In this document: in pieces, positions 1 to 6,915 of the stretch
How the letters are laid out: each line of letters opens with the position of its first letter
Position numbering within the stretch: position 1 is the stretch's first letter
DNA from: a virus
Lineage: Duplodnaviria > Heunggongvirae > Uroviricota > Caudoviricetes
DNA length: 6,915 bases
IMG/VR virus record: IMGVR_UViG_3300000059_000098
Coordinates: 1-6,915 of that record
Reading direction: 5' to 3' (one strand)
Translations under genes and position numbers: made by a program
The notes under the pieces: model-generated
What the model saw: the letters and a program-made list of their open reading frames with translations, nothing else
Databases searched by the model: none
Told to the model about the DNA's origin: nothing

Positions 1-777
1 AGTGCCGCCAGCTTCGCTTCCCAACGCAGCAACATGCGGTGATTTTGCCTGTGCAACCTTTTCCATTGCCGCAGACGTACTTTCGGTATATTCAATCTTC
101 CAGTGCGGATAACGATTAAGGAATTTGCTGCATTGCTGGAATGGCTGCGGATGGCTGTAGACCGTATTGATGGTGGATAAATCAGTAGTGCCGGAGACCA
201 ACAAACAATGGTCGATAGTTAACGTCATCTCGCCAACAATCGACAAGCTGGTATGTTGCAGCAGATCGTAAACGTCGTTTATGGCACCGGAGCTGGTATT
301 TTCAATCGGTACGACGGCATAGTCGGCCTGGCCGGTTTCCACCTGATTAAAAATATCGGCAAATTTGGCGCAGCCACTTTCAATGAATTGCTCAAAGTGA
401 CGGGCAGCATACTGGCGCGCCGCAAGATGGGAATAAGAACCTTTGGGGCCGAGAAAAGCGATGCGTGCTGAGTGCGGATTAATTTTATTGAGATGTTGCT
501 GGAGCAAAGCCTGCTGAGTTAATACGGAATCTTCAATGATGAGCTGGAACAGGCGAGTAATGTAATGGGCGTCCAGATGGTGCGCTTTACCGAGCGTAAT
601 TAATCTTTCCAGCAAATCGCGTTCACGATCAATATCACGTACCGGGCGATGCGAGAGCAGTTTGGCTTTTCCCACCTCGACGGCCAGTTCGCGCCGCTCT
701 GCCAGTAATGCTAATAATTTTTCATCCAGCGCGCTGATTTTCTCTCGCAGCGCCAGTAACGGGTTTTCCGATGTCAT
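1..777 (-). CDS. pheA: Chorismate mutase / prephenate dehydratase PheA, N-terminal 259 codons (C-terminus lies beyond the left edge)
   Basis: Minus-strand frame is open from the ATG (reverse complement of 775-777) to position 1. Translation begins [41 protein letters not shown] and reaches ...[20 protein letters not shown] at the edge, which I recognise as enterobacterial PheA. Absent from the ORF track because there is no in-window stop. Confidence 0.95.
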
Positions 778-798
778 AGTGTTGCCTTTTTGTTATCA

Positions 799-828
799 AT
801 AAAAAAGGCCCCCCGATTTGGGAGGCCT
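799..828 (-). terminator. pheA attenuator terminator (leader hairpin plus U tract)
   Basis: GC-rich inverted repeat ggcccccc (807-814) / gggaggcc (820-827) with a 5-nt loop; on the minus-strand transcript it is followed by a run of U (plus-strand A-run 801-806), directly between pheL and the pheA start. Confidence 0.8.
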
Positions 829-875
829 TATTGTTCGTCTTCGCATTCTGTTTCACACGACGAAACGCCTCCCAT

Positions 876-923
876 TCAGGGGAAGGTAAAAAAGAATGCG
901 AAGAAAAACGGTGTGTGTTTCAT
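876..923 (-). CDS. pheL: phe operon leader peptide, 15 aa, [15 protein letters not shown], seven Phe codons
   Basis: Minus-strand ATG at 921-923, stop TGA at 876-878; Phe-rich leader immediately upstream of the attenuator hairpin and pheA. Too short for the ORF track. Confidence 0.9.
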   Translation of the reverse strand: [15 protein letters not shown]

Positions 924-939
924 GTTTGTTTCCTTAAGT

Positions 940-980
940 GACTTTAGTACAGTACCCGTACTGTTTTCACGCTGTCAACA
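940..980 (-). promoter_or_regulatory. pheL-pheA promoter region
   Basis: Consensus -35 TTGACA on the minus strand (plus 973-978) about 50 nt upstream of the pheL ATG. The -10 element is not confidently assigned; candidates lie around 949-956. Confidence 0.55.
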
Positions 981-983
981 AAA

Positions 984-1001
984 AACGCGCCCGAAGGTGC
1001 G
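984..1001 (-). terminator. Terminator-like hairpin insulating the pheA promoter from transcription coming from the integrase side
   Basis: Minus-strand RNA would read CGCACC-UUCG-GGCGCG followed by UUUUUU: a 6-bp stem with one A/C mismatch, a UUCG tetraloop and a U6 tract. Confidence 0.35.
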
Positions 1002-1005
1002 TTGT

Positions 1006-1091
1006 AAAACCCACTGAATTCAATGTTTTCCCTTTGTTTTCAGTGGGTTTTGTTATTGGTGGGGGTTACTGATTACCCTATAAAACCCACT
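1006..1091. repeat. Inverted and direct repeats of AAAACCCACT between the host promoter and the integrase stop; candidate att junction or integrase/IHF binding sites
   Basis: aaaacccactgaa (1006-1018) is the exact reverse complement of ttcagtgggtttt (1039-1051), a 13-bp perfect inverted repeat around a 20-nt spacer. A third direct copy, aaaacccact, lies at 1082-1091 and overlaps the integrase stop codon. Confidence 0.45.
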
Positions 1092-2080
1092 TATGTGGAT
1101 GAAATGTGGATGCCTCCTTTTAACGGATTAAGTGAAATTGCATCCTGGAGGAAATCAGGAGCGAGGTGCGCATAGGTCATAGTTTGCTGGATCGTGGCGT
1201 GCCCCATAATTCGCTGGAGCGTAAGTATATTTCCTCCATTAATCATAAAGTGAGCTGCAAAGGTATGGCGTAGAACATGTACAGCCTGTCCTTTTGGTAG
1301 GTCAGGCTTAACACTGCGGAGCACCTTGCGATATTCCTCATAATTGACGTCAAACAAAAGGCCGGATTTCTTTGTTTTGATCTCGCTAACAACTTCATCA
1401 GAGACAGGAATAATTCGAACTTTTCCGTTTTTAGTTTTGTTAAACGTCACGCGGTTATTGATGATGTGTTCCGCGCGCAGATTTTTCGCCTCTCCCCATC
1501 TCGCACCAGTACTGAGACAAAGTAGCGTAATCCGCCGGGCATCACCGCTTACTGCATCCAGTAATTTGGCGATTTCTTCCGTGGTGAGATACGTCATTTC
1601 GGGTGATTTTCGTTTCAAAGAGGGGAGGGCGCGGAGCGGATTTTCTCCGTGAAATTCCCCGGCATTTGTCAGGAGTGTAAACATTCCTCCGAGATCCGAC
1701 TCATCACGCCGAACAGTAGACTCTTTTACTCCCAAGGATAAACGGGAGCTTCGATAAGCGGCCATGAAACGAGCATTAATCTGGCTAACCCTTGGATCAT
1801 TCATTTCTTTGATGATTTTTTTCAACCTGGTTAGAACGCCGTTAGCATATGGCTTATTGCGTCCACCCAATTCCCACCATAACGGAAGCAGATCTGAGAG
1901 ATGACGTTGCTCTGTTGGTTTTTCAAGCCATTCCTTATCGTGCATGTGGCTGAGAACATAACGCTCAAAGGCCACTGCATCTGCCTTTTTCTTAAAAATC
2001 CGCTGAATCCGACGTCCACTTCGGCCACGCGGTCTAACATCCACTTTATACCGTCCACCATCGAGCGCTTTAATTGCCAT
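1091..2080 (-). CDS. int: Phage tyrosine integrase, P2 Int-like (329 aa from MAIKALDGGRYKV...)
   Basis: Complete minus-strand ORF. Tyrosine-recombinase catalytic residues are visible in order: TGARWGEA (Arg), HVLRHTF (His-x-x-Arg), and MTYAHL (Tyr) near the C-terminus. The N-terminus MAIKALDGGRYKVDVRPRGR resembles P2 Int as I recall it. Start chosen at 2080 because GGAGGG lies 8 nt upstream; the track's ATG at 2113 has no Shine-Dalgarno sequence. Confidence 0.9.
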   Translation of the reverse strand: MAIKALDGGRYKVDVRPRGRSGRRIQRIFKKKADAVAFERYVLSHMHDKEWLEKPTEQRHLSDLLPLWWELGGRNKPYANGVLTRLKKIIKEMNDPRVSQINARFMAAYRSSRLSLGVKESTVRRDESDLGGMFTLLTNAGEFHGENPLRALPSLKRKSPEMTYLTTEEIAKLLDAVSGDARRITLLCLSTGARWGEAKNLRAEHIINNRVTFNKTKNGKVRIIPVSDEVVSEIKTKKSGLLFDVNYEEYRKVLRSVKPDLPKGQAVHVLRHTFAAHFMINGGNILTLQRIMGHATIQQTMTYAHLAPDFLQDAISLNPLKGGIHISST

Positions 2081-2146
2081 TGGCAAGCCCTCCGGTGAAA
2101 CGAGGAAAGACATTTCCAGTTTGTAAAACGTAAGAATAATAAAGGG

Positions 2147-2449
2147 TTAACCAATTTTCCTTTCGGATGGGGGTAAATCCGTTGGTTCTTGCCCATAGTG
2201 TGCGAGAGCCGGAGCTATCTGCCCGGATTCAGGCGCAATTTTTCCAGTCATAAACCACAACGCATATTTCTCAAATCTGGGGTTATTTAGTATTTGCTCA
2301 ATTACTTCAGCATTAGGGATGGTTTTACCGCTTTCATATCTCCACAGAGCATCACGGTTTAAACCAAGCATTTTTGCTGTATCCGGGAGGCTAGTAAGTC
2401 TCTCGCTTTCACGCATGATTTTTATGCGTTCTCCAATAGTCATACGCAT
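2147..2449 (-). CDS. C: P2 C-type immunity repressor (about 100 aa, HTH)
   Basis: Minus-strand ORF upstream of and co-oriented with int. Translation MRMTIGERIKIMRESERLTSLPDTAKMLGLNRDALWRYESGKTIP...FEKYALWFMTGKIAPESGQIAPALAHYGQ matches my recollection of the 99-aa P2 C repressor in length, HTH position and the C-terminal IAPESGQIAPALAH segment. Start set at the first ATG (2449), which has GGAGAA 7 nt upstream; the track starts at a TTG at 2464. Confidence 0.8.
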   Translation of the reverse strand: MRMTIGERIKIMRESERLTSLPDTAKMLGLNRDALWRYESGKTIPNAEVIEQILNNPRFEKYALWFMTGKIAPESGQIAPALAHYGQEPTDLPPSERKIG

Positions 2450-2544
2450 GTTGCAATTCTCCAACGTCTGTATTAATGTTTATACAAATGAGTTTGATTT
2501 GGGGCATCCGTCGCAAGAAATACCCCAAACAGGGAGATTATCAC
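2450..2544. promoter_or_regulatory. Divergent switch region between the repressor (leftward) and cox (rightward); expected Pc/Pe promoters and operators
   Basis: 95-bp AT-rich intergenic region between divergent genes. A candidate rightward promoter is TTGCAA (2451-2456) with ATTAAT 16 nt downstream (2473-2478). A 7-bp inverted repeat tttgggg (2498-2504) / ccccaaa (2523-2529) sits just upstream of the cox ribosome-binding site. Operator assignments are not resolved. Confidence 0.5.
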
Positions 2545-2871
2545 ATGAATGAAGAACTATTGAGGGCATTGTTTAAGATCCCAGACCCCATCACCGTCGA
2601 TGAGTTTTCCCGCCGCACAGGTAAGACCGAATCAGCCGTAAGAAAGTTGGTAGAGCGTCGACTCATCCCTCTAACTACTGAGCGCGAGGTTTTAGGCGAG
2701 GAAGGGAGTTCGCGCCGTCTTCTCATCCTTTGGAATGAGTGGCTCGAAATGGTCTATGACGCAACGAAACAGCTTCCTCCTGAGCGTAAAGATTGGCGCA
2801 ATCACTGGCTTAAGAAAGCCAAGAAGCTGGCGGAAGATTTGGGATTAGGCTTTCTTAATTTTGCTGCATGA
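2545..2871 (+). CDS. cox: Cox-like excisionase / early-promoter regulator (108 aa)
   Basis: ATG at 2545 with AGGGAGA 7 nt upstream; first gene of the rightward operon, divergent from the repressor as in P2. The segment ITVDEFSRRTGKTESAVRKLVERRLIP resembles the Cox/excisionase HTH, and later ILWNEWLEMVY and PPERKDWRNHW resemble corresponding P2 Cox segments (from memory). Confidence 0.65.
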   Translation: MNEELLRALFKIPDPITVDEFSRRTGKTESAVRKLVERRLIPLTTEREVLGEEGSSRRLLILWNEWLEMVYDATKQLPPERKDWRNHWLKKAKKLAEDLGLGFLNFAA

Positions 2872-2889
2872 GATGCAGGGAGTTTTGAT

Positions 2890-3231
2890 ATGAAACAGCA
2901 ACGTAATTCACGCTTTCGTAATGGTGCTGAACGTCACGCTAACCGTTTCGCTACCAGTGCATCACGCAGCAACATCCGCTACAGCCTGAGCGATACACAC
3001 GCAACGCCGGATGGCTACCCTGTAAAACAAATCGGTGAGCATGCCTGGCTGATTGAAAAAGCTGGAATCGTGGTCCACAAATGCCCACGCAATCCGTTTA
3101 CCGGAAACCGCATTTTTGCATTGAGCTGCGGCGACAATCAGTTCGGGCAGGATTTCACATTATACGAAGCACTTCGCACGGTTGATCGTCTGCTTCGCGG
3201 ACAAAGTTTTATTAAACAGGTTGATTTATAA
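2890..3231 (+). CDS. Hypothetical protein, 113 aa, basic N-terminus
   Basis: ORF with AGGGAG 7 nt upstream of the ATG, 18 bp after the cox stop. No motif I recognise. Confidence 0.7.
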   Translation: MKQQRNSRFRNGAERHANRFATSASRSNIRYSLSDTHATPDGYPVKQIGEHAWLIEKAGIVVHKCPRNPFTGNRIFALSCGDNQFGQDFTLYEALRTVDRLLRGQSFIKQVDL

Positions 3232-3241
3232 CAGGTGATTT

Positions 3242-3520
3242 ATGACCAAAGAGTATGCACAAGGTGTATTTATCCGTTTTATTGATTTTCGCGGTGAACT
3301 GTTGTTACGTGCATCAGCTATTGATGCTGTAGCCCAGGCAGAAAAAAAAGCAGTTACTCACGTTTATGCGAACAACGCGCAACTGATCGTGGAGCTTCCG
3401 TACCAGACTGTACGTGAAGCCATTAGCGAAGCTGAAAAGGCACGTCAGATTAATAGCGATGAACCATACATCGAAATTATCTGCATGGATTCAAAAGCAG
3501 AAATCCAGAAGGCAGATTAA
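3242..3520 (+). CDS. Hypothetical protein, 92 aa
   Basis: ORF 10 bp after the previous stop with a GGTGA Shine-Dalgarno-like sequence; the same strand and tight packing support it as coding. Confidence 0.7.
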   Translation: MTKEYAQGVFIRFIDFRGELLLRASAIDAVAQAEKKAVTHVYANNAQLIVELPYQTVREAISEAEKARQINSDEPYIEIICMDSKAEIQKAD

Positions 3521-3531
3521 AGGGCGTTGCA

Positions 3532-3774
3532 ATGGACCAGGAATACAAAACTCTCGTCAATAAAGCACTTGAGCGCTTTCATTTTCGCATAAGCGCATCA
3601 GGCACTCATGCTGAGCTCGCAGCCCGAGAGTCATTGACCAGGGCCATCAAGAGTATATACGACACAGCTTTTTACATTGACGACCCGGACGCGCTCGACG
3701 AGCTTTCCATACTCGTCTGCGCCGCAGAAAACGGGGACCATATTGAGCCATATAAACTGGGGAATATTGCATGA
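3532..3774 (+). CDS. Hypothetical protein, 80 aa, acidic
   Basis: ORF 11 bp after the previous stop; its stop overlaps the start of the next small ORF (ATGA). Confidence 0.7.
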   Translation: MDQEYKTLVNKALERFHFRISASGTHAELAARESLTRAIKSIYDTAFYIDDPDALDELSILVCAAENGDHIEPYKLGNIA

Positions 3775-3884
3775 GTATATTTATCTCATGGCTTGTTCTG
3801 ATTATTTCGGTGGCCTGCGCCATTGGGATTATGCGAATTATTCATTCAGTAAAAAAGATTGAACGCTTTTTCACTGGTGAATAA
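3771..3884 (+). CDS. Small hydrophobic membrane peptide, 37 aa (MSIFISWLVLIISVACAIGIMRIIHSVKKIERFFTGE)
   Basis: ATG at 3771 overlaps the stop of the upstream gene (ATGA), with GGGGAA 7 nt upstream. It has one predicted transmembrane helix followed by a basic tail. Below the ORF-track size cutoff. Confidence 0.5.
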   Translation: MSIFISWLVLIISVACAIGIMRIIHSVKKIERFFTGE

Positions 3885-3977
3885 CGATACAAATAAAACA
3901 TCAAATTAAATAAGAAAACGTGAAAACCATCCGTATTAACGGAGGTATTCGCACACGAAAATAACGGAGATACAAAA
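3885..3977 (+). promoter_or_regulatory. AT-rich intergenic region with direct repeat TAACGGAG x2; possible internal promoter or regulator site
   Basis: 93-bp non-coding gap inside an otherwise tightly packed operon. TAACGGAG occurs at 3937-3944 and 3963-3970; the second copy supplies the Shine-Dalgarno sequence for the ORF at 3978. Confidence 0.25.
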
Positions 3978-4388
3978 ATGCACGCAAAAGAAGAAGGTAT
4001 CATCAGAGCACTGAAAGAAATTTCAAAGACAGAAAACGAAGTAGCGAAAAAAGCCATAGCAAATAATCATATGGACGTCGCAACCCACACACTGATAGTC
4101 GCAAGAGTCACGGCAGAAGCAGCCGAAATTATCGCACAACAGGATGCTGAACTGGCGGTTCTCAGAACACAACCAGTCACCGGACTGGATTTGTCTAACA
4201 CCGGACGCCTTATTTACACAATTGGCTCGGAGCTACAGCGATACACCATTATCGCCGGGTTACAGGATAAATACCTGATCACTCCTCACCCCATAAGGGA
4301 ATCAGAAATTCTGACAAATCTCCGCCTGATAGAGCGCTCTCAAGTCGCATTCATTGATGACGCACAGTGCACCGTATTTAACGCATAG
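3978..4388 (+). CDS. Hypothetical protein, 136 aa
   Basis: ORF with GGAGA 7 nt upstream. No motif I recognise. Confidence 0.75.
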   Translation: MHAKEEGIIRALKEISKTENEVAKKAIANNHMDVATHTLIVARVTAEAAEIIAQQDAELAVLRTQPVTGLDLSNTGRLIYTIGSELQRYTIIAGLQDKYLITPHPIRESEILTNLRLIERSQVAFIDDAQCTVFNA

Positions 4389-4411
4389 GGTTACTGGACA
4401 AAGGGGGCGCA

Positions 4412-4615
4412 ATGGCAATTAAGCATTTTCCCGTCGTTCGCTTTACCTCCAGAGGGCGCGAATACGAGGTCGACGAACGCCTGATTACCACTATCGACAA
4501 ACATCGTTCGGAAAAGGATGCACACCACATCTACCTCACTGACGGCACTTACTTCTGCGCCACGAATGTGGTGCGGGTGAACCTTATCCGACAGGTACAG
4601 GAGTCACGCAGATGA
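4412..4615 (+). CDS. Hypothetical protein, 67 aa
   Basis: ORF with AAGGGGG upstream; first of six consecutive genes that each overlap the next by ATGA. Confidence 0.7.
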   Translation: MAIKHFPVVRFTSRGREYEVDERLITTIDKHRSEKDAHHIYLTDGTYFCATNVVRVNLIRQVQESRR

Positions 4616-4878
4616 CCATTCTGGACTATATCGCTACTCATCCGGGTTGTAGCGGCGGAGAAATCGCCGCAGCACTGAATACTCCAACCACAGCCATTAA
4701 TGCTGAGTTACGCCGACTTTGGCGCAGCGGCTTAGTCATCAGAACAAACCGCAGCACAGGTGGTCACGCTCGCAAAACAGGAGGCCGGGCTTCTTACCAC
4801 GTAAACCCGATGCCGTTCGGGTGTGGCAACCCACTAACCCACATGTTTAACCAGCTACTGAAGGAAGCCAGAGCATGA
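4612..4878 (+). CDS. Small predicted winged-helix DNA-binding protein, 88 aa
   Basis: ATGA overlap with the upstream gene; AGGAG 8 nt upstream. The segment GEIAAALNTPTTAINAELRRLWRSGLVIRT looks like a helix-turn-helix plus wing. Fold assignment is by eye only. Confidence 0.7.
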   Translation: MTILDYIATHPGCSGGEIAAALNTPTTAINAELRRLWRSGLVIRTNRSTGGHARKTGGRASYHVNPMPFGCGNPLTHMFNQLLKEARA

Positions 4879-4997
4879 GCACCATCAACCACCAGGAACC
4901 ACGCGAACTGGCGACTGCCGTACAAAGAATGTCTACCCAAAAATCACTGCCATTCCGTGTGAGCCCTGTCCGACGGGTACAGGAGTCACACGGATGA
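4875..4997 (+). CDS. Small ORF, 40 aa (MSTINHQEPRELATAVQRMSTQKSLPFRVSPVRRVQESHG)
   Basis: ATGA overlap at both ends; AAGGAAG 7 nt upstream. Its C-terminus and 3' end duplicate those of the 67-aa gene. Below the ORF-track size cutoff. Confidence 0.45.
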   Translation: MSTINHQEPRELATAVQRMSTQKSLPFRVSPVRRVQESHG

Positions 4998-5212
4998 ACA
5001 GAAGGAGAATTACACGCAGACATCGCCGCACGCGCCTGAGCTCCCCGCCAACACTAAAGGAACTCATTCAAAGCGAGATCGGTGATTTCTTCGCTGGGTT
5101 TGGATCACCTAGCGAACCAGAAACACCAGAAGCGATGCAGCGCGAACTCATGATGCGCATCGATAACGTTTTTGACTTTTTCCTGAATAACAAAAGAGAG
5201 CAACCGACATGA
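4994..5212 (+). CDS. Hypothetical protein, 72 aa, arginine-rich N-terminus (MNRRRITRRHRRTR) and acidic C-terminal half
   Basis: ATGA overlap with the upstream gene; AGGAG 8 nt upstream. Confidence 0.65.
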   Translation: MNRRRITRRHRRTRLSSPPTLKELIQSEIGDFFAGFGSPSEPETPEAMQRELMMRIDNVFDFFLNNKREQPT

Positions 5213-5421
5213 ACGAAAAGACCTGGTTTCGCGCATACATGTGGGCGCTGGTATGCGTCCTCTTTTCTCTCATTCTGTATGCGGGACTACTCCCCCGAAT
5301 GATTTCATCAGACAGCTCCTTCCTGGTATTGCTGGGCATTTTTGTCGCCTTGCTGTACCCGGCGGGCGTTGTCCGCTTTTTCAGTAACTACATCAAAGCA
5401 ACTATGGAAACCAAACAATGA
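5209..5421 (+). CDS. Small integral membrane protein, 70 aa, two predicted TM helices
   Basis: ATGA overlaps at both ends. Hydrophobic segments WALVCVLFSLILYAGLL and FLVLLGIFVALLYPAGVV. Confidence 0.7.
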   Translation: MNEKTWFRAYMWALVCVLFSLILYAGLLPRMISSDSSFLVLLGIFVALLYPAGVVRFFSNYIKATMETKQ

Positions 5422-6242
5422 AAAAACTATTACCACTCATCCCTCTCCTGATGACCACACTTCTGGTTGGCTGTGACCGCGTGGAGCCGGGCAATGTAGG
5501 CATCAAAGTCAACAAACTGGGCGACGACAAAGGCGTCGGTGAAGTGGTTGGCGTTGGCCGCTACTGGACAGGCTGGAATACCGAGGTTTACATCTTCCCG
5601 ACCTTCAAACAAATGAAGACCTACGATGAGCCGTTCAGCTTTCAGATGAGTGACGGCACAACCATCGGCTATCACATCGGTGTGGCCTACAAGGTTGATC
5701 CATCCAAAGTTACTACAGTGTTTCAGACCTACCGCAAAGGCGTGGATGACATTACCGACACTGACCTGCGCCAGAAGATCGCCGATGCACTCAACCGACT
5801 GGCCAGCAAAATGACCACCGATAAGTTTATCGACGGTGGTAAGTCTGAACTGCTGGACTCAGCACTTAAAGATATTCAGGAAGAGATGACCCCCATCGGC
5901 ATTCAGGTCATGAGCCTCTCTTATGTCGGTAAACCGGAATATCCGCCAACCGTTATTGACAGCATTAACGCCAAAGTCACGGCAAACCAGAAAACCCTGC
6001 AACGCGAACAGGAAGTCAAGCAACGCGAAGCAGAAGCCAACATGCTGCGCGCAGAAGCTGCCGGACAGGCTGATGCCATTCGCACAAAAGCCCAGGCTGA
6101 AGCCGACGCCATTCGTTTACGCGGTGAAGCTCTGCGCCAGAATCCCGGCGTTATGGAGCTGGAAGCAATCAACAAATGGAACGGCACGCTGCCGCAATAC
6201 ATGACCAGCAACACCGCTGTTCCGTTTGTTCCGGTGAAGTAA
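5418..6242 (+). CDS. SPFH / band-7 (stomatin-prohibitin-flotillin-HflK/C) domain lipoprotein, 274 aa
   Basis: The N-terminus MKKLLPLIPLLMTTLLVGC-D has a signal peptide with lipobox LVGC and Asp at +2, predicting an inner-membrane lipoprotein. The body has SPFH-like composition and ends in an Ala/Glu/Arg/Gln-rich coiled-coil-like tail, as in HflK/HflC-type proteins. Confidence 0.85.
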   Translation: MKKLLPLIPLLMTTLLVGCDRVEPGNVGIKVNKLGDDKGVGEVVGVGRYWTGWNTEVYIFPTFKQMKTYDEPFSFQMSDGTTIGYHIGVAYKVDPSKVTTVFQTYRKGVDDITDTDLRQKIADALNRLASKMTTDKFIDGGKSELLDSALKDIQEEMTPIGIQVMSLSYVGKPEYPPTVIDSINAKVTANQKTLQREQEVKQREAEANMLRAEAAGQADAIRTKAQAEADAIRLRGEALRQNPGVMELEAINKWNGTLPQYMTSNTAVPFVPVK

Positions 6243-6248
6243 TTAAAC

Positions 6249-6273
6249 CCGGCCAGTGAAAATCGCTGGCCGG
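6249..6273 (+). other. Stem-loop after the SPFH gene (8-bp perfect stem, 9-nt loop)
   Basis: ccggccag (6249-6256) / ctggccgg (6266-6273). A T6 run follows only at 6287-6292, so it is not a canonical intrinsic terminator. Confidence 0.3.
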
Positions 6274-6319
6274 AGCAGTATCAGGATTTTTTAGTATGCC
6301 GTTCTCACAAAAAAACCGC

Positions 6320-6349
6320 TTGCCATGCCTCAATAGGTCAGGTTACATT
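6320..6349 (+). promoter_or_regulatory. Candidate promoter for the antisense-RNA / icd-like transcript
   Basis: TTGCCA (6320-6325), 18-nt spacer, TACATT (6344-6349). A moderate match only; placed just upstream of the first sense target block. Confidence 0.3.
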
Positions 6350-6380
6350 TCCGCTGCACCTCATAAAACGGGTGCCGGGA

Positions 6381-6404
6381 TTCTCAACCCGACACAGAGC
6401 AAAG
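6381..6404 (+). promoter_or_regulatory. Upstream sense target pair (a1/b1-like) for the c4-like RNA
   Basis: ttctcaac (6381-6388) and agagcaaag (6396-6404) are exact reverse complements of gttgagaa (6524-6531) and ctttgctct (6510-6518). Confidence 0.4.
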
Positions 6405-6410
6405 CGCATA

Positions 6411-6431
6411 ACCGCGCAAGCGGTTTTTTTG
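6411..6431 (+). terminator. Short hairpin with GCAA tetraloop and U7 tract; possible terminator or attenuator
   Basis: accgc-gcaa-gcggt followed by ttttttt (6425-6431). The 3' arm can alternatively pair long-range with accgcttgc at 6315-6323. Confidence 0.35.
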
Positions 6432-6471
6432 TGCGTACTGTATCGCCACGTCTTTTTCGCGTCAGAATTAT

Positions 6472-6547
6472 GGCGGGGCGTACGGGGCCGACTTTGGTCG
6501 GGCCGGATTCTTTGCTCTCCGGTGTTGAGAACCCTGTACGTCTCGCC
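6472..6547 (+). ncRNA. Candidate c4 / CI-type antisense immunity RNA (76 nt)
   Basis: ggcggggcgtacgggg (6472-6487) pairs with ccctgtacgtctcgcc (6532-6547) as a 16-bp closing stem with three G-U pairs. Inside are a 5-bp hairpin (6488-6501) and a second hairpin (6503-6507 / 6518-6522) whose loop carries ctttgctc, followed by single-stranded gttgagaa. These two segments are exactly complementary to two sites repeated upstream (6381-6404) and at the RBS of the downstream ORF (6557-6601). Confidence 0.45.
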
Positions 6548-6556
6548 ACCCCGAGA

Positions 6557-6602
6557 TTCTCAACTCTGGATGGTGAGTTATTTCTATCACCGAGCAAAGA
6601 GG
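6557..6602 (+). promoter_or_regulatory. Downstream sense target pair (a2/b2-like) overlapping the ribosome-binding site of the 76-aa ORF
   Basis: ttctcaac (6557-6564) and gagcaaagag (6592-6601); the second block covers the AAGAGG Shine-Dalgarno sequence at 6597-6602, 7 nt before the ATG at 6610. Confidence 0.4.
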
Positions 6603-6609
6603 CCACACC

Positions 6610-6840
6610 ATGGCAAACCGCAAACAGCACCGCGCTATCGCGGAGCGTCGTCACATCCAGACTGAAATCAACCGCAGACTTTCCCGCGCATTCCGCGTCG
6701 CTAAAATCATGCACATCAATATGTTGCATGAGCGTAGCTGCGAACTTTCAAACCTCTATTCATCCGCTGTTTTCAGCTATCTGGCGGATGATCTGCGCGA
6801 GCTTCAGCAGCTCATTCAGCAGCAAAACAAACTCCATTAA
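6610..6840 (+). CDS. Small basic protein, 76 aa; possibly an Icd-like first gene of an antirepressor operon
   Basis: ORF with a strong AAGAGG 7 nt upstream. Its position directly after a c4-like RNA and its target sites parallels the P1 c4-icd-ant layout. Functional assignment is by context only. Confidence 0.6.
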   Translation: MANRKQHRAIAERRHIQTEINRRLSRAFRVAKIMHINMLHERSCELSNLYSSAVFSYLADDLRELQQLIQQQNKLH

Positions 6841-6915
6841 TTCCTGTTCCGGGCCTTTCCTGCACCTTGCGGCGGGAGGCCTTCGCACATCTGTAGTAAA
6901 GAGGATTGCCGCAAT

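Follow-up and report, generated by a model that had tools for sequence, protein, structure and literature searches.

A probable C4/CI-family RNA immunity switch upstream of an epsilon-like gene in a P88-type, P2-like prophage

In phage P4, the CI RNA and seqA control transcription termination; transcripts from an internal promoter are untranslated and give rise to CI, and translation of eta from transcripts that begin further upstream overrides the CI-dependent termination (PMC10111431). In phages P1 and P7, the c4 RNA blocks translation at a ribosome-binding site (RBS), and the a and b sequences set specificity and are the basis of heteroimmunity (PMC12197685). In the lambdoid Gifsy-1, IsrK activates an antirepressor encoded further downstream, and transcripts that read through are processed to STnc1160 (PMC4825925); in lysogens, both RNAs are expressed in all conditions tested (PMC7067206). 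The kind of switch represented by this C4/CI family is known, and its placement in a helper phage is little described. P2 is the textbook example of a temperate phage that cannot be induced and that has one protein repressor. Here, we analyzed a 6,915-nt stretch of viral DNA (IMG/VR record IMGVR_UViG_3300000059_000098, positions 1 to 6,915; hereafter, the window) that comes from a prophage of the P88 type, and we present evidence that this common P2-like lineage bears a second, RNA-based layer of control, placed before a homologue of epsilon, the P4 protein that derepresses P2. The RNA locus, its targets and the gene that follows them lie on the plus strand of the window.

Based on a scan of the window against Rfam, three matches exceeded the gathering cut-offs: C4, isrK and Phe_leader. 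The C4 match (RF01695, 6466-6553) was full-length, covering model positions 1-87, and scored 77.6 bits against a cut-off of 45. Matches to the C4 and isrK models have already been used as indicators of CI and seqA relatives (PMC10111431). The sequence 6466-6553 folds with an energy of -47.6 kcal/mol (z = -5.3), a stability reached by none of 200 dinucleotide shuffles, and the minimum-energy fold of the region is also its centroid. In this fold, a closing stem with U6471-A6548 as its outermost pair delimits the core of the RNA (6471-6548) and encloses a first hairpin, a second hairpin whose loop bears the segment b′ (ctttgctct at 6510-6518, within 6508-6518), and the unpaired segment a′ (gttgagaa, 6524-6531). 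A long stem and two hairpins, with the recognition segments in loop 2 and in the 3′ single strand, is the architecture of the C4 family.

The family also has two pairs of target sites on the same strand, one on each side of the RNA, and both pairs are present here. On the downstream side, a2 (ttctcaac, 6557-6564) is followed by b2 (6592-6602, with gagcaaagag at 6592-6601), which forms nine Watson-Crick pairs and a G6601-U6508 wobble with b′. The b2 site overlaps AGAGG 6598-6602, the Shine-Dalgarno (SD) sequence of a 76-residue open reading frame (ORF), which stands 7 nt before the ATG at 6610; such an overlap between the second target and the RBS of the first gene is characteristic of the immI region of P1 and P7. 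On the upstream side, a1 (ttctcaac, 6381-6388) and b1 (agagcaaag, 6396-6404) repeat the same arrangement. The 8-mer TTCTCAAC occurs three times in the 6915-base window, always in the RNA locus, compared with 0.30 copies expected, and GAGCAAAG occurs four times, three of them in the RNA locus, compared with 0.33 expected. The fourth copy of GAGCAAAG, at 502-509, lies in host DNA to the left of pheL with no partner a-site nearby and is most likely due to chance.

The upstream targets are part of an IsrK/SeqA-type leader RNA (6356-6430; isrK, RF01394, 61.9 bits against a cut-off of 50) with a folding energy of -24.2 kcal/mol (z = -2.9). Its structure consists of a hairpin at 6356-6375, a second hairpin at 6376-6391 that presents a1 in its loop, the single-stranded b1 and, based on a terminator scan, an intrinsic terminator at 6410-6425 followed by a U-run; isrK RNAs likewise have three hairpins, the last of which is an intrinsic terminator. 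RNAs of the isrK type bind Hfq and accumulate as short stable RNAs. A promoter scan localized a sigma-70 promoter-like site at 6320-6349 (TTGCCA, a spacer of 17-18 nt, and TTACAT or TACATT; 9 of 12 matches), which ends seven bases 5′ of the isrK match and places the predicted start of the leader at about 6356. In distant homologues, the hexamers of this site are kept and the spacer has diverged at constant length. The c4-a1b1 model of P1-type leaders (RF03163) scored the leader at 15.2 bits, far below its cut-off of 46.7, which ruled out a P1-type leader; because isrK matches and c4-a1b1 fails, we assign the leader to the P4/Gifsy-1 type.

These results refine a preliminary description of the window, which had placed a C4/CI-type antisense locus at 6377-6610. 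All of the segments and target blocks that it listed are present at the positions given, the covariance-model search and the folding that it proposed both identified the RNA, with b′ in a loop and a′ unpaired, and the downstream target pair does overlap the SD of the 76-residue ORF. The closing stem that it described as 16 bp is real, with 17 bp in the minimum-energy fold. The segment ctttgctct, described as lying in a hairpin loop, is indeed in loop 2, except that U6518 is paired to A6507, leaving 6508-6517 as the loop proper. The complementarity described as exact is so for a′ with a2, while the tenth pair of b2 is the G-U wobble. The proposed boundaries were too narrow on the left, where the leader extends to about 6356 and the promoter-like site to 6320.

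Comparison across homologues provides the strongest evidence that these pairings are functional, in the form of concerted compensatory change. Our first set comprised 82 loci, namely, 80 viral contigs encoding the 76-residue ORF, P88 and the closest E. coli prophage, to which three divergent lineages were added through more distant protein homologues; pairing was counted on an alignment of 48 sequences with 43 distinct rows. In the 82-locus alignment, no change is seen in the hexamers of the promoter-like site or in most of the terminator and of the outer stem of C4, and a1, b1, b′, a′, a2 and b2, all of them short, account for nearly all of the variation. These six blocks vary in concert, with five a′ cores and 12 b′ cores occurring in 15 combinations, and the divergent lineages contribute three further specificity types, read by eye, which brings the total to 18 combinations of at least five a-types and at least 12 b-types. 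Within each combination, the a duplexes have 7-8 bp and the b duplexes about 9 or more bp.

The b1:b′ pairing was maintained in 100% of the alignment cells, with seven of nine pairs changed on both sides, and the b2:b′ pairing in 94.9% (7 of 11 pairs changed on both sides). Both a1:a′ and a2:a′ were paired in 90.4% of cells, each with five of eight pairs changed on both sides, and the failures in these two duplexes are confined to the terminal pair. Considering the whole structure, 98.4% and 97.5% of cells were paired, as opposed to 37-46% when the partners were slid by 1-3 columns, and none of 500 shuffles attained the observed pairing. The intramolecular helices of the C4 RNA are 100% paired over the 43 distinct sequences, with covariation in hairpin 1. 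Homologous loci thus keep their complementarity through compensatory change, the condition on which the preliminary description had made its reading depend.

The a-types and b-types also reassort; b′ CTTTGGTTG, for example, was found in combination with either of two a′ cores, and CTGCGAA / CTTTGGTTG is one of the natural a/b types. Immediately beside the variable core of b2 stands AGAGG, which is nearly constant (GGGG in one b-type). This AGAGG has its partner in the UUCU of the b′ loop, itself largely constant, so that the b2 duplex enters the SD in each type examined. The b2:b′ duplex has 8-14 bp and reaches the SD in the 15 tabulated combinations, and the three types read by eye do likewise.

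In four cases, two loci of the set came from the same genome. In three of these pairs (L017/L041, L026/L038 and L028/L075), the a-type is shared and the b-type is different, and the fourth pair (L077/L079) is probably one prophage on two contigs. Four pairs are far too few for a conclusion; they are compatible with a need for different RNA specificities in co-resident prophages.

The gene controlled by b2 would be that of the 76-residue ORF (6610-6840), a member of the 'Derepression' family that P4 epsilon defines: PF25738 scores the ORF at 29.5 bits, with a cut-off of 27, and P4 epsilon at 167.9 bits. A BLASTP comparison with P4 epsilon gave 32% identity over 50 residues (E = 2e-8). Most of the 148 database relatives of the ORF carry a precomputed PF25738 assignment, and their source names, where present, are 'derepression protein'; a search of NCBIfam with the ORF gave no match. 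P4 epsilon binds the C repressor of P2, and P2 is thereby derepressed. Based on this homology, we consider the 76-residue protein a candidate antirepressor of a P2-type C repressor. The identity of the ORF with Icd of P1 was ruled out by the absence of any BLASTP alignment between the two. The preliminary description had proposed checking for an antirepressor gene of the KilAC/Ant type beyond 6915; no such gene follows the cassette in P88 or in the closest E. coli prophage, where the ORF is followed by a 121-residue hypothetical ORF and then by the gene of the replication endonuclease gpA, and the 76-residue ORF takes its place as the antirepressor candidate.

An epsilon homologue has been noted in Sp13, a P2-like prophage of E. 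coli O157 Sakai that is mitomycin-inducible though its repressor has no peptidase motif, and the homologue was proposed as the explanation (PMC2669165). The likeness of Sp13 to the window concerns this gene; the report makes no mention of an RNA switch ahead of it (PMC2669165).

The order isrK, C4, epsilon-like gene and Phage_GPA is kept at fixed spacing even where the epsilon-like proteins are only about 57-77% identical, and the distance from the end of the C4 RNA to the ATG was 57 nt in all seven loci checked. The lineages that keep this order are prophages of E. coli and Salmonella and a lambdoid-like mosaic, and all lineages examined have Phage_GPA downstream of the cassette, two of them immediately so. 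Two O157-type loci (L089 and L090) carry the cassette. In L091 and L092, the isrK-C4-epsilon-gpA block stands in a lambdoid-looking mosaic together with Ead/Ea22, DUF1627, DUF968 and a Q antiterminator; the cassette thus travels with gpA as a module between phage types.

Judged by sequence, the closest relative of the locus is the P4 immunity region (seqA-CI-seqC-epsilon), to which a P1-like RBS-masking layout is added. In P4, the constitutive promoter PLE is followed by seqA, the CI RNA and seqC, with eta and kil nested, and then by epsilon and alpha. The C4 model scores P4 CI at 74.9 bits, and the isrK model scores P4 seqA at 60.8 bits, nearly the same values as in the window. The two loci also align in their -35 regions and in the placement of the first downstream target, and the promoter-like site corresponds to the PLE region of P4. 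In both systems, the promoter (predicted in the window) is internal to a long ORF that spans the RNA and is in frame with an AUG at the RNA 5′ end, as established for P4 by coordinate arithmetic, and a PF25738 epsilon-family gene and then a replication gene follow downstream. The two systems differ in four respects. The cassette resides here in a complete phage of the P2-like helper type and not in a satellite; only 57 nt separate the RNA from the epsilon-like gene, which is contained in the long frame, while P4 epsilon is located about 245 nt beyond eta; the second downstream target has the P1-like position over an SD; and the replication gene is gpA, a rolling-circle nickase, whereas that of P4 is the primase-helicase alpha.

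The immI region of P1 and P7 shares with the window the series of promoter, a1, b1, C4, a2, b2 and start codon in nearly the same order and spacing, the location of b2 over the RBS of the first gene, and an antirepressor as output, which in the window is a candidate. Nevertheless, P1 scores 68.8 bits with C4, 51.0 with c4-a1b1 and 35.1 with isrK (below cut-off), the reverse of the pattern of the window leader. Additionally, the first gene of the window is unrelated to Icd, neither Ant1/2 nor KilA follows it, so that there is no icd-ant arrangement, and the window locus has no C1-type operator. The published descriptions of isrK-STnc1160/orf45-anrP in Gifsy-1 likewise contain an IsrK leader with a terminator, a structured RNA and an antirepressor gene. 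Gifsy-1 differs in being lambdoid, in having as output the large antirepressor AnrP, reached by coupling from orf45, and in that the published model stresses activation by IsrK and not repression by the C4-like RNA.

The preliminary description had taken the P1/P7 immI architecture as its model, and this comparison bears it out for layout, spacing and RBS masking; the leader, however, is of the IsrK/SeqA type, and P4 is nearer than immI. The relation to P4 CI that it also mentioned agrees with the nearly equal scores of the two RNAs. Its proposal of an RNA-based second immunity or antirepressor switch gains support from the C4 match, the conserved complementarity and the SD overlap.

The long open frame of the window extends from 6296 to its end at 6915, in phase with the AUG at 6470, and is closed by a TGA (6914-6916) one base past the window. 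It begins with AGGA at 6283-6286, a 9-nt spacer and an ATG at 6296 (together 6283-6298), upstream of the promoter-like site, and crosses the leader, the terminator, the C4 RNA, a2 and b2 and, in the +1 frame, the epsilon-like ORF; its TGA overlaps the ATG of the next gene (ATGA). In a 97%-identical locus (L002, 8047-8667), the frame encodes 206 residues. Its upstream part is open in 46 of 49 distinct regions, with 0.08 stops per sequence compared with 1.7 and 2.4 in the other two frames, and the hypervariable blocks often hold TAG or TGA out of frame with it. The downstream part, from the C4 AUG to the stop, remains open for 144-150 codons in about 86 of 90 loci. In four divergent lineages, the C4 AUG is preceded, at a distance of 57-61 codons, by a start codon that has an SD-like site, and the ATGA end on the next gene was found in L002, L089, L087 and L091, whether that gene is the 121-residue ORF or gpA. 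The amino acid identity of the long frame is 39-49% in the overlap with the epsilon frame and 18-32% in the tail, compared with 56-74% for the epsilon frame itself. Across these sequences, it is the openness and the end point of the frame that are conserved and not its amino acid sequence. The through-frame of Gifsy-1 resembles it in having conserved nucleotides and variable amino acids (PMC4825925, PMC12197685). The long frame is homologous to P4 eta and to the Ash domain in the antirepressor of phage ASU11. By coordinate arithmetic, its phase is that of P4 eta and of this Ash-Rha antirepressor, and the override logic of the P4 eta type appears to fit it.

Based on these observations, we consider it likely that the locus is a C4/CI-family RNA immunity and antirepressor switch of P4-like build, located in a P88-type phage upstream of gene A. 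C4/CI systems produce a mature RNA of about 77 nt from a longer precursor, and its 5′ end is made by RNase P. In a lysogen, the internal promoter at 6320-6349 would start an untranslated leader at about 6356, and most transcripts would end at the leader terminator (6410-6430), yielding a short RNA of the IsrK/SeqA kind in which a1 and b1 are exposed. Transcripts that read through would contain the structured RNA of the C4 kind (6471-6548, about 78 nt). This RNA would presumably be excised as in P1 and P4, and its loop segment b′ and single-stranded a′ would pair with b2 and a2 on the mRNA. The b2 duplex would mask the SD of the epsilon-like gene and shut off its translation, and the expression of the downstream genes, including gpA, would probably be reduced through polarity or termination. 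The leader a1/b1 might compete for the C4 segments, in cis or as a short RNA in trans, and thereby tune the switch. Once made, the epsilon-like protein would act on the P2-type C repressor in the way in which P4 epsilon acts on C of P2, and inactivate it. Transcripts from the early promoter Pe would contain the ATG at 6296; ribosomes on the long frame would cross the leader, the terminator, the C4 RNA and the targets, overriding the RNA block, and the ATGA overlap would hand them to the next gene, as has been described for P4 eta.

Several points weigh against this proposal. Promoter, terminator, processing and repression are all predictions from the sequence. The duplexes are short (7-10 bp), with -10 to -15 kcal/mol in this sequence, and between 1 and 71 of 500 target shuffles equal their energies, making single-sequence complementarity by itself suggestive rather than decisive; because the duplex energies barely beat those of the shuffles, the strong evidence is the comparative one. 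The PF25738 match is just over its cut-off, and the binding of the C repressor is putative. The long frame contains an in-frame stop in three of the 49 upstream regions (L039, L042 and L047), its downstream part is shortened in L046, probably in L078, and in L047, and its +1 openness within epsilon is not significant by synonymous-codon permutation, in which 20-81% of permuted sequences stay open; because of this last result, the case for the long frame is made by the upstream region and the ATGA end. Scans for a LexA box (full consensus with up to three mismatches, and CTGT-N8-ACAG with up to one mismatch) found none in the window, which leaves any link to DNA damage unexplained; a Tum/LexA-type SOS input at the RNA locus, considered as a candidate, is unsupported for the same reason. 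Additionally, constitutive expression of the Gifsy-1 C4 homologue left IsrK toxicity unrelieved (PMC4825925), and a simple picture in which C4 represses and the leader titrates may therefore be incomplete.

The locus might instead serve mainly as a P4-type termination immunity over replication, with the masking of the epsilon SD as a secondary effect. C4 acting on nascent a1/b1 and a2/b2 would then cause premature termination, and neither the lysogen nor a superinfecting phage of like specificity would express gene A. We regard this as possible, on balance leaning against it. The isrK/seqA leader with its intrinsic terminator is as in P4, where CI works through termination (PMC10111431, PMC4825925), and the cassette, absent from P2, is inserted in the early operon upstream of gene A, with Phage_GPA after it in all lineages examined and immediately so in two. 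Nevertheless, b2 is located on the epsilon-like SD in all 18 specificity types, which points to a P1-like control of translation initiation, and termination is itself compatible with SD masking, since a block of translation causes polarity.

We consider it rather unlikely that the main function is a positive control of the Gifsy-1 IsrK type, in which the leader would act in trans to remodel the read-through transcript or to titrate the C4 segment, thereby permitting translation of the downstream ORF, and the C4-shaped segment would mostly be part of an inactive mRNA conformation and not a free antisense RNA. The isrK model scores the leader above its cut-off, and the a1/b1:a′/b′ helices covary as strongly as those of a2/b2. 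Moreover, IsrK of Gifsy-1 activates the translation of orf45-anrP and is required for prophage induction, and compensatory mutations there support the helix between the leader and the C4 region (PMC4825925). In the homologues of the window, however, the a2/b2 duplexes covary equally and cover the SD, and a purely cis conformational model needs neither; in P1/P7 and P4, the repressor has been established to be a C4/CI RNA that is processed and free. IsrK-type control thus appears to be a complementary layer more than a true alternative to the antisense switch.

It is very improbable that the region is a protein-coding gene or its remnant, of the 'ash family protein' kind, in which the RNA features are incidental. 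This interpretation would account for the long open frame, for its weak match to the Pfam domain Phage_ASH (18.7 bits, below the cut-off of 26) and for a RefSeq annotation of a partial 'ash family protein' pseudogene over the RNA locus (L084, 1548-1811). Nevertheless, the amino acid sequence of the frame is poorly conserved relative to that of epsilon, the variation in six short blocks that change in concert to maintain pairing is unexplained by coding, and two covariance models score above their cut-offs. The Phage_ASH domain appears to be the translation of a seqA-CI RNA region, and the RefSeq label would follow from that. In current genome annotation, the RNA locus is thus wrongly labelled, either as an 'ash family' pseudogene or as hypothetical proteins: the P88 record places the hypothetical protein gp13 over it (L001, 5033-5221, minus strand), and neither the RefSeq record of L084 nor the P88 record contains an RNA feature at the locus. 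We treated two further ORFs of the window, of 97 residues (6372-6665, plus strand) and 122 residues (6361-6729, minus strand), as non-coding, given that they have no Pfam match and are crossed by the hypervariable blocks.

The reading that the complementarity arose by chance, or that the locus is what remains of a decayed P4-like element that no longer functions, would agree with single-sequence duplex energies near those of shuffled controls, but it is effectively refuted by the 18 co-varying combinations and the failure of all 500 shuffles to match them, and it is further opposed by 8-mers that are essentially confined to the locus at about ten times their expectation and by the occurrence of the region in 1293 of 5426 complete E. 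coli genomes (about a quarter) and in the inducible, plaque-forming P88 (PMC5285337).

Compared with the described members of the family, the less ordinary features of this locus are its location in a helper-type phage before an epsilon homologue, its combinatorial recognition segments and the read-through frame that spans the RNA. A joint interpretation, which we put forward tentatively and hold to be rather doubtful as a whole, is that P88-type phages back their protein repressor with a P4-type RNA immunity that in E. coli and Salmonella has split into 18 or more specificities, as concerted triple compensatory changes and reassortment altered its two recognition segments. This immunity would gate a self-encoded epsilon-type antirepressor, which would constitute the missing induction route where the repressor is uncleavable; the unconserved ORF would serve only the Pe override, and the cassette and epsilon would share common ancestry with those of P4, with transfer in either direction. 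Should the switch model proposed above hold, it would provide an induction pathway for prophages such as Sp13, which is mitomycin-inducible without a cleavable repressor (PMC2669165), the helper and the satellite would share an immunity module, and the homologues would represent a natural library of orthogonal short RNA:RNA recognition pairs built from the a-types and b-types counted above.

The assignment of the window to the P88 type (Xuanwuvirus, Peduoviridae, P2-like) is based on the order of its genes and on its resemblance to a phage that has been classified. The genes run in the order integrase, helix-turn-helix repressor, Cox, DUF4761, DUF4754, other early genes, SPFH lipoprotein and RNA locus. 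The C protein of the window has 105 residues (2147-2464). Among the window proteins, Pfam matches were obtained for the helix-turn-helix, DUF4761, DUF4754 and integrase domains, with Phage_Cox, at 24.6 bits, just below its cut-off of 27.5. According to annotation and Pfam, the order of gene types is the same in the window, in P88 and in an E. coli prophage at pheL, and follows the P2-like series of int, C, cox, early genes and A. A 666-base query (6250-6915), the part of the window that was compared, is 89.6% identical to P88, a phage obtained by mitomycin C treatment (PMC5285337).

The int-C-cox-A region of P2 gave no C4 or isrK match, even at E <= 1, and by this comparison, the RNA cassette, which precedes the replication gene A in the early operon, counts as an addition when P2 is taken as the prototype. 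The preliminary description had called such a locus unexpected in a P2-type element, which agrees with the P2 region, with the qualification that the epsilon homologue of Sp13 was already on record (PMC2669165). In a literature search that was incomplete, and which is hence weak evidence of novelty, we found no paper describing C4 in P2-like phages.

The prophage is inserted beside pheL/pheA, as deduced from the position of the host pheA leader (799-924, minus strand; Phe_leader, 132 bits, above the gathering cut-off), which is only 166 bases from the integrase gene (1091-2113, minus strand). The same pheL junction is present in E. coli 23CRST027, and the window contains no tRNA gene.

Around the C4 RNA, a 3′ context of GCCACC is conserved, and an acceptor-like stem is visible. 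Between a2 and b2, the block CTCTGGATGGTGAG (6565-6591 area) is near-invariant in all homologues and precedes a hairpin that folds at 6571-6590, directly 5′ of b2, and that occurs in two sequence versions at the same position among homologues. The block and hairpin may serve as a site of processing or of Hfq or RNase E action, or may help to present b2.

Upstream of the RNA locus, a GC-rich hairpin (CCGGCCAG...CTGGCCGG, 6246-6275) without a proper U-run lies 3′ of the gene of a 274-residue lipoprotein-like SPFH/Band-7 protein (5418-6242; PF01145, 108 bits), annotated as 'serine protease' in P88. This gene may be a moron or an accessory gene of the early operon.

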